From assembly GCA_031370785.1 (NCBI GenBank), contig JANMQY010000144.1, forward strand, positions 1 through 64,000: 64,000 bases of DNA. The letters are read 5' to 3'. The stretch's first letter is position 1, and every line of letters begins with the position of its first letter. This stretch comes from Candidatus Eiseniibacteriota bacterium (GTDB taxonomy: Bacteria; Eisenbacteria; RBG-16-71-46). Position numbers: made by a program. Shown here piece by piece: positions 6,001-12,000 of this stretch.

Positions 6001-9000
6001 GGGCTTCGAGACCGATGCGAACTACGCGGTGCGTGGCGCCCATCTCGAACATCAGGTGTTGAGCGCGGTGTCGCGCCTCGGGATCGCGGTGGAGGAGCGC
6101 CACCGATTCGAGAACACGCTCAGCTTTACGCGCGACAATCAGACTTCGATACGCAGCTTTCCCGACGCCGTTTCTGGCGACACGGTGACTTCTGCCGGGG
6201 TAAAGCTCGAACCGATCGAGACGTCCGTCTACGAAGACGCCCGCTGGCTCTCGGACTTCAAGCTCGGCGGCGACCATCGGCTGGTGGGCGGAGCCGCGAT
6301 TACCTACGGGCGCACCACCGCGACCGGGATCGGCTTCGACTTCGATCAGCTGCTTTCGGACCGCTCGAGCATCCCCGATCTCTCCACCATTCCTATCGGC
6401 GACAATCGTTCATTCGAGGACACCCGCACGTTCTTCGGTGTCTACGCCCACGATGAATGGACTCCGGCCGCGCGGCTCACGCTTTCCGGCGGCGGGCGCT
6501 ACGACAATGCGTCAGAAAGGCTCCACGCGTTCGGCCAGGAGGTCGGTGACACGGCTACCATCTCCGACGATTCCAAGACGACCGGTGCATGGTCGGGCGA
6601 CATCGCTGCGCTGGTGCGACTGGCTCCGACCGGCGCAAAGGCGCTCGAAGCGCTCAATGTCTATGCGAACTTCAAGAGCTCCTTTAAGCCTGCGGCCCCG
6701 AACCTGACCGAGGCGGAAAACGCGCAGATCCTCGAGCCGGAGCGCAGCCACTCGCTGGAGGGCGGGATCAAGGCACGCGCATTCGACCGACAGGTTGCGC
6801 TGAACTTCGCGTGGTTTCAGATGGACTTCGAGAACATGGTGGTCTCGAATCTCGACACTCTGGGCAACCCGCAGCTGCTCAACGCCGGGCATGAGCGTTT
6901 CAAGGGCCAGGAGGTGGACATCACACTTTCTCCGGCAGCCCTGCCCGGCCTTTCGCTCAACGCCGGCTATGCGCATCACGACCCGCGCTTCGTTCAGTTC
7001 ACTTTCGTCACCCCCGATGGGCAGTTCCGCAACGTCAGCGGAAAGTTTCTCGAGCTGGCACCGCGCGATCTGTTCAACGCGAGGCTCGGCTACCAGGACC
7101 CGCATGGAATCGGCGCCTGGATCGCCACGCGTCGCCAGGGCGTACGCGCGCTCACTCGTCGCAACACATTCTTCACCGAAGCCTTTACCGAATACGACGC
7201 CGGGGCGAGCTGTGAATTCGGAAAGGTTCTGCTCACCGTCGTCGGTCGAAACCTCGGCGATGATCGCCACATCGTGGGCGAGAGCGACATCGGCGACTCG
7301 CAGTTCTATCTGGCGCCGCCGCGCCGGGTGAATGCCGAGGTCACACTTCGTTTCTGATGGACGGGTACACCGCGCTGCCGCGGTGCACTCCTCACTCGAG
7401 CCCGGTTCGCCCGCAACGGCGGACCGGGTTTCGCATTCAGGGGTGAAACTCCCCCGCTTGCTCCAGCTGCCTGGGATGCGCTCTGCGCGTCCAACTGCTC
7501 GCTCCGATTCCCCGACTGACAAGGCAGCGGAGGTGGGTCCACATCGGCCAACCGGCCCCCGATTACGATCAACCTCCGCGGAACCCGGCCGCCGCCCCTT
7601 GCCTGTCGTGGTCGAGATCTTTCGACCTCGACCGAGTCCTATCGCAAGGCGCGGACCACTCGCTCGCGTTTCCCGATTCGGCTCGCAACGCGTTGCAGTT
7701 GCACTGTTCGAAAACCTCGCGTCCCATCCAGCGCGTGACCAGGCGCAGCGCCGGAGTGTCAACGCCATGAGCGTCAGTGTCGCCAGGTTGACGAGGCGTG
7801 AATGCCGGACACGAGTCGCCGGCGCCATCCAGCAGTGCTATCCGCCTCCCCGCGACGAGCTACCTGCAGACCCCTTCGAATTGACCCCTTGACGCGTGCA
7901 CGGGTGTGCACCATATTACGGACGTGCCGGGTCCATCACCGGACCTCGAGAGGTTCCAGGAGGGCTGTGGATCATGTTGACCGACCGTGCGCGCGAGATC
8001 CTCAAATTCATTCAGCGATCGACGCGAGAAAAGGGCTACCCGCCGACCATCCGCGAGATCGGCGAGGCCTTCCAGATCTCATCCACGAACGGTGTCCGCC
8101 ACTATCTCAACGTGCTGGAGAAATCGGGCCATCTGCGTCGCGTCGGAAAGATCTCCCGCGGTCTCATGCCGGTCGGACTTCAGGAGGCTCCTCGTCCGCG
8201 CACCGGCATTCCGGTCCTGGGACGTGTCGCCGCCGGTCAGCCGATCCTTGCTGAGGAATCGTTCGACGATTCCCTCGACCCTGGCCAGATGTTCGGAGAT
8301 ATCAGCGGTGTCTTTGCCCTTCGGGTGCGCGGTGACAGCATGGTTGGCGCGGGGATCCTCGAGAACGACTACGTGATCGTGCGTCAGCAGGAGCGCGCCG
8401 TAGCCGGTGAGATCGTGGTCGCGCTGCTCGGCGAAGAGGCGACCGTCAAGTACTATCAGCCGCGTCGCGGATCGATCGAGCTGGTCGCCGCAAACGAGAA
8501 GTACCGACCGATCGTGGTTGGCGAAGATGCGGAATTTCGAATCCTCGGGATCGTGAAGGGAGTGATTCGAACCGTCGGACGCTAAGCCCACATCACAATG
8601 ATTTACCCACGGGAGCGTGGCTCCCGTTTTTCAGGTGTCAGAGTTGCACATTCGTTCAACACTCCCCGCAGGAGGGCAGGACCGTGAACCGCAAGATGGC
8701 TCCCGAAGTGAAAGATGCGTTGCTGACCAGCTGGGAGCCGCTCTACCGAAGCCGGCTGCATTACCTCGTGACCTGGAGCACGCGCGGGCGTCGGCCGGTG
8801 CTGCGGGATCGTCATGTGAGCGCGATCGAGCAGCTGGTGCAGCAGGCCTGCGATGAGCGCGGCTTCGCGCTCGTCGATGTCGTTGCAGGCTCCGATCACG
8901 TCCACGTGCTTCTGGGCCTGCGCCCATCGCACAGCATCTCCAGCGTGGTTCGCGAGATCAAAGGCCGCTCGGGCATGGCGATCCTCGCGCAGTTTCCCGA

Positions 9001-12000
9001 GCTGCGCGTGTGGCTCCACGGCAATCTCGTCTGGGATGAGCGCTACTCTGTCGAGACCGTGAGTCCCACTCGCATCGAGAAGGTGCGCGAACGGCTGCGC
9101 AATATTCACGCGCTGCCGGCGGAGTTCGCCCGAGCGAGCTGAATCGCGAGCGCGAGATTTCCGCAATCAATCTCCCCGCGGAAACGACCTCGGAAAAAGA
9201 AGCGACCCGGAGCGGTAGGCGTAGCCATGCACCATGGAGGATGCGCCGCTCCGGGCTCGCGTCTTACCCGCTCTCGGACTTCGCCAGCGCGGCTGAGGGC
9301 TGCTGCGACGTGGCGAGAATCGCCGCGGCGAGGACGAGCACTGCCCCCAGCCATTGAAGCGGCCTCAGCCATTCCCCGAGGAAGACCGCAGCCGCGATGA
9401 CCGCGACCAGCGGCTCTAGCGTGGCGACGATGCCCGCTTCGGCGGCCGGCAGTCGGCGCAATCCGGCGTAGAAGAGCGAGAACGGCACCAGTGTCGATCC
9501 GACGCCAAGGACCAGGAACATGCCCCACAGGTTCGCGTCGTAGTGGGCGGCCACGATGCGGGTAGGCGGCGTCACCACCGCCCAGAACGCGCCGGCGATG
9601 AGAAACGTGTAGAACAACACGGTCTCGGGCGCGTACCTCTCCAACCCCCGCTTGGAGTAGACCACGTAGAACGCGAAGAACACGGCCGAGCCGAATCCGA
9701 TCGCCCAGCTGAGCGCGCTGGCGTGAAGGCGTATGTGATCCACGTCACCCACCAGAAGCGCAGTCCCGCCGAGAGCGCACATCAGCGCGATCCCGGTGGC
9801 GACGGTCACCCTCGCGCCTCGCGCGGCCTCGTAGAGCACGATTAGCGAGGGAGCGAGGTATTGGAGCAGGATCGCCAGTCCGACCCCCAGCACCGAGATC
9901 GAGTAGTAGTAGCTGCCCTGGACCGCTGCGACGCCGAGCAGCCCGAGAATGAGGAAGTAGGCAAAGTCCTTTCGCCTCAGGCGCAGGGCTTCCGGCTTGC
10001 GCCATGCCAGCCAGATCCCGAGCAACGTCGCCGCGATCAACAGCCGCAACTCGACGACGGCGACCGCCGGAACGTGCCGGTCGCGAAATACGAAGCGCGC
10101 GAGGGTCGCGGTCGTTCCCCAGAACACCGTGGCCGCGAACACCAGCGCTCGCCCACGCGCTCGACTCGCGTGCGCCGCGCTGTGATCCTGCGCCGGCGGC
10201 ATCGCCGAGACGCCCGAATCAGTGCCCATGCCACGACTCGAGGGGCCGCATTACAGCAGACGTCGTCGGATCAGGCGGTAGGTGCGCACCGCTCCCGCGT
10301 GACGTACGGCCAGAGTCACCCGCGTGCCGGGCGGACCCTCGAGGAGCCGCGTCACCCGACCCACGTCCGCCGTCGACCGCGCATCAGGTCCGCCGCGCAC
10401 GGTCAGTCCATTGACCGACACGACCTCGTCGCCCACCAAGATCCCGGCGCGTGCTGCCGGTGAGTCCTCGGCCACCGCGACCACGCGAAGCGCCGCGTCC
10501 CAGCGTTCGAGCTGCAGTCCGATGTGCGAGTACTCGTACGGACGCCCCGCGATCTCCGCCGAGCGCGCAGTGAGCCAGAGGACTCGCGCCGGATAGTCGA
10601 TCACGACTCGATAACGCTGCAGGAATCCGCTGCCGAGCAGGCCATGGATCGGCAGGCCGGTCACGCTCGACAGCGCTTGGGACAGCTCGGTGCGCAGCAC
10701 GACCGCGTCCACTCCGAGCTGCCGCACCGAGCCTGAGTCGGCCTCGAGCTCGAGCGCCGCGACGAGCGCCACGTGCGCGTCCGAATTTCCGACCAGGGTC
10801 GGCACGGTCAATCCGCGCAGCGTTGGCCATTCGCTCGAGCCAGGCACGAGATCCGCCAGAGAGTCCTCGAACAGCACGGTCTTCGTGGCGCCGGTGTCGA
10901 CGATCAGATTGAGCGGGCCCGAAAGCTTCAGAAGCCCGGGATTGGCGAGATGCGCGCGCACCACGATCTTTCCGTCGCCAGCGAGCTCGAACGGAATCGC
11001 CCGAGCACGCGCGCCGAGAAGTCCGGACAGGCTGTGGCGAGAGGATTCCACGCGTTGCGCGATCTCCTCGGAGGCAACTCCGCCGCGATCGCCGGCGCTC
11101 GTATCGCTCACGTGGTTGGATCGAGCCCGATCCCTGACCGGAACGAGCGCCATGGTGTTCGTATCGAAATCGATCCAGATCGCGCGCGAGCCGATCGGCC
11201 TCTCTCCGAGCAACCCGAGCACGGGTCGGTCGGTGACCCGGCGCACCACTCGACCATCCACGATCAGCACCGGACTGACCTGATTCATCTCGAAGCGTCC
11301 GATGCTGAATCGGGGCAGCGCGCGCTCGGCGAGCTGGATGCTTGAATGGGGAGCAATGCTGTCCGAAAGTCCAAGGCGTTGTGCGAGCTCTCGATCGAGC
11401 GCAAGAAATCCCGCACCGGTATCGAGCGCCAGCACTCCAGAGGTGTCCACTCCGTTGGTGCCGAGCAGCCCAACCTTGATCAGCAGAATACCTTCAACGT
11501 TTTCAAAATGGACGACTTCGGTGCCATCGGGCCACGAGGGCGGAATCTGCTTTGCGGTGGGACGAGTCGCGTGCGCGGCCCGCCGAGCCGGCTGAGAGGT
11601 CGCGGCTGTCATTCCGGACGAGGGCAGCACGACGAGAACGACCATGGCGGCCAGCGCGATTCGAGTGAGCAAAGTGACTCGCGAGGCCTGCACGACTCGC
11701 CGCCAGATCCGCTGGGGCGAAGGCAGAAAGAGGGCGGCGCGAGTCACAGAATTGCTGGGTGTGTCGTCGCGATCAGCTTCGAACGGTCTCACGCATCCTG
11801 GCCGATTCGGTTGCGAGCTCGACGCCCTCACTCCCGGCCTCGAGCATCGTGCATCGCCCGGTGAAGAACACTCCCGGCTCCATGACGACGCTCATGGCGG
11901 CGACGTCGCCTTCCACATGCGCGCCGGCCTTCATCTCGACCACGCCCAGCGCGCGAATATTGCCGACGACCCGACCGCGCACCAGCGCCTCTTGCACCTC

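Follow-up and report, generated by a model that had tools for sequence, protein, structure and literature searches.

A tyrosine-less IS200-type TnpA protein, domesticated behind lexA, as a probable non-cutting member of the SOS response

What does a gene of the kind routinely annotated as 'IS200/IS605 transposase' do directly behind lexA? The question arises in a 64,000-nucleotide stretch of DNA from Candidatus Eiseniibacteriota bacterium (contig JANMQY010000144.1), referred to here as the window, and our analysis flags that routine label as a misannotation. lexA, coding for the SOS repressor (7974..8585, plus strand; TIGR00498, E 5e-53, over the cut-off), is followed after a gap of 98 nt by an ORF of 152 aa with a GTG start (8684..9142, plus strand; Pfam Y1_Tnp, E 1.2e-22), preceded by the Shine-Dalgarno sequence AGGAGG (8670..8675, plus strand). 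The predicted fold of the protein matched ISDra2 TnpA (2xo6) with a Z of 19.2 and an rmsd of 2.4 Å over 113 residues, the profile search placed it over the NF033573 cut-off, and a search of ESM Atlas returned Y1_Tnp clusters only. The window gene was the one match of the Y1_Tnp profile in the whole genome, in which the profile search for TnpB gave no match, and the domain search detected no helix-turn-helix addition in the protein. No 16-mer of the spacer or the downstream flank recurred elsewhere in the genome, and no REP-like repeats were found near the gene, where the highest 16-mer count was 1-2. A conserved right-end sequence 3′ of the gene was not evident in every third locus, the sample that was inspected.

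Matches to the family were present in 94 of 102 genomes of the order, and in 95 of the 96 loci of the family lexA was the gene directly upstream; the remaining locus starts 16 nt from a contig edge. Of the 8 genomes with no match, 7 also had no lexA, and the other has lexA cut at a contig end. The loci comprise 83 of a main family and 13 of two sister families (families 2 and 3), from which 79, 9 and 3 proteins, respectively, were scored; the three may share one origin. A profile search of 104 genomes of the phylum outside the order found no orthologue, and the three weak matches there were Tyr-bearing IS200 TnpA proteins. The median dN/dS of the gene was 0.19 (43 pairs), compared to 0.21 for LexA, with higher values of 0.29-0.48 for the family-3 core, and distances between Y1_Tnp proteins tracked those of LexA. 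Domestication as a host gene is established, since the gene is single-copy, fixed in position and under purifying selection, with distances that track LexA. This agrees with the initial annotation, which had described a domesticated single-copy core gene behind lexA, and its overall interpretation of the gene as a member of the SOS response is likewise supported.

The lexA promoter (7889..7917, plus strand) has a -35 hexamer TTGACG and a -10 hexamer CATATT, with a putative LexA box at 7897-7910 between them, and the same geometry was found in 90 of 94 lexA upstream regions. A conserved GTGCCRGGTYC after the lexA -10 box was considered as an SOS element and set aside, as its 17 matches are scattered in the genome and not specific to SOS promoters. 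Downstream of lexA, a terminator-like hairpin with a U-tract (8609..8632, plus strand) folds at -13.8 kcal/mol; such a hairpin and U-tract occurred in 83 of 95 lexA-Y1_Tnp spacers, a stricter consensus scan making no call at this site, and the U-tract may also serve as the -35 element for an internal promoter. The motif scan gave an internal putative LexA box, TGCAC-N4-GTTCA (8645..8658, plus strand). Of 95 spacers, 84 have the consensus TGCAC-N4-GT(G/T)CA letter for letter and 94 have it with at most one mismatch, compared to 6 of 19,000 shuffles, which bears out the box claimed for the gene. The putative box also precedes both dinB operons of the window genome, and a degenerate form precedes recA (at most one mismatch in 11 of 30, compared to 65 of 3,000 shuffles). 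Because this box recurs in the promoters of recA, lexA and the two dinB operons, membership of the gene in the SOS (LexA) regulon, as previously asserted, is supported by motif evidence, and a putative LexA box of an uncultured lineage can be given. In four RNA-library runs of one study the only contigs were those of a close relative, two of them of about 14 kb, and they gave no start-site or transcription signal.

The neighborhood of the gene differs between families. dinB follows it in 13 of 13 family-2 and family-3 loci, compared to 0 of 80 main-family loci, 73 of which have at least 1.5 kb of downstream sequence. Among 20 outgroup lexA loci, none had a Y1 match, and in 10 dinB comes after lexA, either directly or past a DUF6504-like gene, and leaves no space in which a further gene could lie. 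Since other orders thus have lexA-(DUF6504)-dinB without the Y1_Tnp gene and the sister families keep dinB 3′ of it, the gene was most likely captured inside this SOS mutagenesis operon, judging from gene order. In the main family dinB has relocated and the gene is still with lexA, and a lexA-linked role therefore fits equally well.

A second family difference is the C-terminus. The window protein ends in FARAS (9125..9139, plus strand), a tail of the [LFWM]AxA[SGC] type that, by motif comparison, resembles the end of the genome's tmRNA tag (MALAA). This type was found in 79 of 83 main-family loci, in 119 of 120 homologues and in 1 of 2,791 crudely called genes of the window genome, and it was absent from the 13 loci of the sister families. 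The tail remains C-terminal although 31 to 49 residues lie past the WxxxY motif; unlike MALAA, however, it has Ser as its last residue in 72 of 79 main-family proteins. An LAxA[SG] end, previously reported for 29 of 30 loci, was found in 13 of the first 30 loci of our own set, in 38 of 83 main-family loci and in 71 of 120 homologues. In the main family, to which it is limited, the tail could act as an ssrA-like degron, a reading for which we assume the ClpX specificity.

Is the protein still able to cut? Arg137 of helix D (9092..9109, plus strand; the helix also carries His142) aligns with the catalytic Tyr of QQYIENQ in TnpA, and Ile141 with its metal-ligand Gln, which upholds the earlier report of an Arg at this position. 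Tyr occupied the catalytic column in 83 of 100 outside relatives, compared to 0 of 91 order proteins, and among 120 database homologues the column held Arg in 120 and Tyr in none. The HUH motif (His72-Val73-His74; 8897..8905, plus strand) had been described as retained throughout. It is intact in 77 of 79 main-family proteins, and order-wide this did not hold, the motif being intact in none of the 9 family-2 and none of the 3 family-3 proteins; family 3 proteins stop before helix D and have no catalytic helix. The stress that was put on a conserved HUH and on an LAxAS end is thus valid for one family of three. Loss of Tyr chemistry follows from the alignment and from the sister families, in which HUH, or the catalytic helix as a whole, has disappeared. 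Two other tyrosines were rejected as substitute nucleophiles: Tyr21 is variable, being present in 68 of 79 main-family proteins and in none of families 2 and 3, and Tyr121 is part of the WxxxY motif on a strand and absent in family 3. The statement that 28 of 29 proteins have no Tyr in the 30 residues after WDExY was not confirmed: with WxxxY as the motif, this is true of 25 of the first 30 loci of our set, the remaining five having a linker Tyr 13 residues beyond the catalytic position.

Basic residues on or next to helix C were kept in all order proteins (R90 and R108, and K/R93, each 91 of 91), and the median pI was 9.2 for main-family proteins, against 11.2 and 10.0 for the two sister families. 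TnpAREP binds hairpins through its helix C (part of PMC3479197), IS608 TnpA inactivated by the Y127F mutation can still assemble into complexes with DNA (part of PMC3597680), and blocked forks attract IS608 TnpA, for which the beta clamp is an interaction partner (part of PMC5027513). Retention of these residues while catalysis decays counts for a DNA binder that does not cut. Together with the established fixation, selection, loss of catalytic residues, common box and operon context, the gene product is probably a non-cutting DNA-binding helper in the DNA-damage response. More specifically, we give about even odds (roughly 0.5) to a binder of single-stranded or fork DNA that derives from a captured tnpA, is SOS-controlled and is cleared through its tail. 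A Y1/IS200-type tnpA would have entered the ancestral lexA-DUF6504-dinB SOS operon of the order, lost the catalytic tyrosine, acquired an internal promoter under LexA control and persisted as a host gene. Upon DNA damage and self-cleavage of LexA, the protein would be made and dimerise like TnpA. At gaps and stalled forks its conserved basic helix-C face would bind DNA that is single-stranded or folded into hairpins, with no cutting, and the protein would so protect or organise the substrate on which DinB acts in damage tolerance. Once the response ends, ClpXP would remove the main-family protein by way of the ssrA-like tail. That a Y1 transposase was domesticated for binding alone, its inherited finding of stalled forks and single-stranded hairpins serving to deliver or regulate the translesion polymerase, is a tentative extension, and the graded active-site loss across the three families is as tentatively counted as part of it. 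If true, damage tolerance in bacteria would have a new component in a dead IS200-type transposase.

The best surviving alternative, which we consider unlikely, is a co-regulator of the SOS response: the dead TnpA would tune it as a binder of LexA, of DNA close to the operator or of the lexA transcript, and would therefore be short-lived. Its place beside lexA in nearly all loci, even where dinB has left, and a small, basic protein with a degron-like tail fit this idea; however, one operon break and positional inertia explain the linkage, no helix-turn-helix was added, and the conserved surface is the TnpA face for DNA hairpins. Retention of HUH together with H26, H44 and H142, near-invariant in the main family, counts against a pure DNA binder, which does not obviously need them. 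It could instead point to an enzyme of changed chemistry that cuts single-stranded DNA via the HUH metal, with water or His142 as the nucleophile. Histidine relaxases are said, in 2017 work of Pluta et al., to use a His nucleophile, and His142, His44 and Asp118 are each present in 79 of 79 main-family proteins. But the 12 family-2 and family-3 proteins have neither an intact HUH nor His142, those of family 3 have no helix D, and they are nevertheless under selection; moreover, a His at the same offset occurs in Tyr-bearing relatives such as 2fyx. We regard such an enzyme as improbable.

The non-cutting binder can be set against known Y1 proteins. With IS200/IS605 TnpA (TnpAY1 subclass 1.1; ISDra2 2xm3/2xo6, IS608 2vju) it shares the fold (Z 16.5-19.5), size, the conserved Trp, the KG motif and, in the main family, DHVH, but the window gene has no Y---Q motif, tnpB or repeated ends, is single-copy at a fixed site and has its own LexA-type box. 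TnpAREP/RAYT (class 2) and subclass 1.2 host-retained Y1 proteins are likewise low-copy, host-retained and without IS features. These keep HUH and Tyr, and proteins without Tyr or HUH were set aside as probably non-functional (part of PMC6006769, a paper that does not mention lexA or SOS). The window protein scored 43 bits against NF047646, the TnpAREP/RAYT profile with a cut-off of 80, and has no Tyr for a Y---NP motif. This family shows that Tyr-less Y1 proteins can be core genes under selection and putative SOS control, unlike the classified host-retained ones that keep the cutting residues (part of PMC6006769). Literature searches found no relevant paper on a Y1_Tnp gene behind lexA, and the new, small candidate SOS component named here is open to in vitro testing. 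ImuA/ImuB are catalytically dead accessories of SOS mutagenesis cassettes, and TldR proteins are nuclease-dead TnpB regulators; both are dead enzymes kept for binding, and ImuA/ImuB also lie between lexA and a translesion polymerase, the folds being unrelated and the likeness an analogy only.

More doubtful still is immunity to transposons, in which the dead subunit would heterodimerise with active IS200/IS605 TnpA or occupy IS-end hairpins and so dampen damage-induced transposition. TnpA is a dimer with hybrid active sites (part of PMC3597680), and irradiation triggers ISDra2 transposition (part of PMC2806898), yet strand transfer in vitro persisted with a heterodimer of wild-type and Y127F subunits (part of PMC3597680). 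There is also little target: TnpB occurred in 2 of 102 order genomes, and full-length canonical IS200 TnpA is rare inside (1 of 102) and outside the order (4 of 104; Fisher p 0.37), with no measurable IS200 depletion within it. Finally, a passenger, either an IS remnant kept for a dinB promoter in the spacer or an active solo transposase, is very improbable and largely refuted by open frames and a dN/dS near 0.2 in the main family, where dinB does not follow, and by a protein without Tyr, second copy or recurring flanking 16-mer, even though in families 2 and 3 the internal box lies ahead of dinB as well. Also in favor of a passenger is one genome (locus L083), whose copy of the gene is frameshifted and has lost its box; the initial annotation had likewise noted one frameshifted relative.

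The Y1 gene, a tyrosine-less IS200-type TnpA(Y1) gene of 152 codons with a GTG start, occupied positions 8684-9142 of the window (+ strand), 98 nt behind its upstream neighbour lexA (7974-8585, + strand) and convergent with a gene for an EamA transporter. By profile its product was a Y1_Tnp protein, above the IS200 transposase cut-off and below the REP-associated cut-off, and the best structural matches of its AlphaFold model (mean pLDDT 86.8) were ISDra2 and IS608 TnpA. The source genome, which is 100% complete, had no other Y1_Tnp match. Domain matches also marked, at 10251-11831 (- strand), a protein that combines a PDZ domain with two aspartyl-protease-like domains.

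Of 94 regions upstream of lexA, 90 had the putative LexA box TGCAC-N4-GT(G/T)CA, placed between TTGAC and the -10 hexamer. In the spacer between lexA and the Y1 gene it was exact in 84 of 95 loci and had at most one mismatch in 94 of 95, compared to 6 of 19,000 shuffles. The recA box was degenerate: 11 of 30 loci matched with no more than one mismatch, compared to 65 of 3,000 shuffles. Among 11 exact matches in the source genome, two were the sites at lexA and in the spacer, and a further two preceded operons of a small gene and a DinB-family polymerase (fetched loci L099:3058-4768 and L106:3075-4575); brief inspection found no obvious SOS gene beside any of the remaining seven. The motif, a putative LexA operator, resembles the Fibrobacter LexA box. 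In 83 of 95 loci the spacer box was preceded by a terminator-like hairpin, whose U-tract lay at a near-fixed distance; this suggests that the Y1 gene has its own promoter, apart from that of lexA. A conserved hairpin arm, GTGCCRGGTYC, was seen just 3′ of the lexA -10 box (7925-7935 in the window) and in most loci's lexA leaders, and similar strings followed the box in both dinB promoters.

Y1 genes of the order RBG-16-71-46 fell into three families, the window protein belonging to the main family (family 1). With the solved protein 2fyx as alignment reference, the catalytic Tyr corresponded to Arg137 and the metal-ligand Gln to Ile141 of the window protein. In a joint alignment with 100 single-domain relatives from outside the order, drawn from the best 150 library hits, 83 of these relatives had the catalytic Tyr and 70 the Gln in the corresponding columns; Tyr was found in 0 of 91 intact-frame order proteins, a count that omits 7 of 98 fetched loci (three frameshifts, one truncation, one sequence containing N, and two loci with a different Y1 gene). 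That column carried Arg in 77 of 79 main-family proteins and Arg or Lys in 9 of 9 in family 2, and all three family-3 proteins ended at or just past the conserved Trp, short of helix D, the helix of the catalytic Tyr. An intact HUH metal site was kept by 77 of 79 main-family proteins versus 0 of 12 in families 2 and 3. Among 855 homologues in the database, the best 120 all had Arg at the catalytic column together with an intact HUH. Taken across the families, these losses of the Tyr column, helix D and HUH indicate a stepwise decay of the active site, during which R90, K/R93, P105, R108 and W117, retained in all 91 order proteins, stayed in place.

Published work places IS608 TnpA at blocked forks and describes a weak interaction with the beta clamp (PMC5027513). 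IS608 TnpA with a mutated Tyr can still form complexes with DNA (PMC3597680), and TnpAREP grips its hairpin by basic helix-C residues (PMC3479197). These three properties favour a non-cutting DNA binder, and we give a probability of about 0.5 to the reading that the Y1 protein binds single-stranded or fork DNA in damage tolerance. A role as SOS co-regulator is a distinctly weaker possibility. That the main-family protein is a nuclease using histidine or water seems unlikely, and a role in transposon immunity is somewhat more doubtful still.

A C-terminal end of the form [LFWM]AxA[SGC] was present in 79 of 83 main-family loci and in 119 of the best 120 of the 855 homologues, preceded by an acidic residue in 75 of 79 and at a varying distance from the core; it was absent from families 2 and 3. 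No other of 2,791 crudely called source-genome genes had this tail, which is similar to MALAA, the end of that genome's tmRNA tag. Such ssrA tags are ClpXP degrons, and the main-family tail is a plausible candidate for another.

A Y1 protein match was obtained in 94 of 102 order genomes; seven of the other eight also had no lexA, and one had lexA cut by a contig end. Of 96 family loci, 95 had lexA directly 5′ of the Y1 gene, and the remaining one lay at a contig edge. One genome carried two additional lexA-linked copies, frameshifted and on small contigs, and one had a sole copy that was frameshifted and had lost its box too. Over 89 paired loci (nine omitted for frameshifts, truncation, N or other genes), Y1 and LexA protein distances gave a Spearman coefficient of 0.85, reached in 0 of 999 permutations, and of 42 well-supported Y1-tree splits 31 recurred in the LexA tree and 5 conflicted with supported LexA splits. 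Median dN/dS in 43 non-overlapping pairs was 0.19 for the Y1 gene versus 0.21 for LexA; two pairs exceeded 0.7, each with poorly alignable family-3 N-termini, and core-only values were 0.07-0.36 in family 2 and 0.29-0.48 in family 3. That the gene is a mere passenger is thus very improbable, and it is very probably a host gene under selection, incapable of Tyr chemistry and equipped with an SOS box. Profile search of the phylum's 206 genomes gave no Y1 orthologue outside the order, and most named relatives were titled Candidatus Eisenbacteria. Two loci labelled Gemmatimonadales were on short contigs, and each of their genomes had a further lexA; mis-binning or transfer may account for them. 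The family-2 figures, alignment, trees and recA count include one genome that is unpublished, G010 (with loci L094 and L258), on which no claim rests.

In all 13 family-2 and family-3 loci dinB was downstream of the Y1 gene, with a DUF6504-like gene between them in seven and DUF72 next in those checked; the flanks of 80 main-family-type loci had no dinB, and 62 had EamA. The outgroup consisted of 20 lexA loci out of 104 non-order genomes, spread over families. None had a Y1 match. In 10 of them lexA was followed by dinB, either immediately or with a DUF6504-like gene in between (a partial match in one case), which left no space for a further gene; these 10 had no exact internal box. The simplest history would be that the Y1 gene inserted into lexA-DUF6504-dinB, that an internal LexA-controlled promoter was then acquired, and that dinB later left the main-family locus. 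Two separate captures are possible: LexA of family 3 stood apart from family-1 and family-2 LexA in the tree, and a single clade of dead Y1 proteins had moderate support (92/90 in one tree; 0.67, with one outsider inside, in another). Several orders had DUF6504 in the position between lexA and dinB, and the small gene of the L106 operon was a weak DUF6504 match; our literature search gave no paper that deals with DUF6504 and polymerases together.

The Y1 classes in the available part of PMC6006769 rest on HUH plus Tyr, with lexA and SOS unmentioned there, and its supplements could list Tyr-less proteins; a search mostly outside subscription journals found no published description of a tyrosine-less, lexA-linked Y1 family. 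The outside protein P0169, a Y1_Tnp without Tyr or intact HUH, was fused to a Sigma70 region-4 domain, and an Atlas cluster of 140 members, most commonly from Armatimonadota, shared this architecture (Sigma70 region-4 domain in 41%), possibly a second dead-TnpA family. The nearest relatives outside the order included proteins of ~270-300 aa with two Y1 domains in tandem (P0132, P0137, P0155, P0175 and P0178); in some of these, one half was degenerate. The order's only clear canonical IS200/IS605 element, with a Tyr-bearing TnpA and TnpB on one contig, was locus L084 (G020:C595). In genomes G088, G064, G056, G046, G086, G075, G061 and G039, RecA profile matches lay in open frames of 580-820 aa but broke off around position 198, and this break suggests a recA intein in part of the order.
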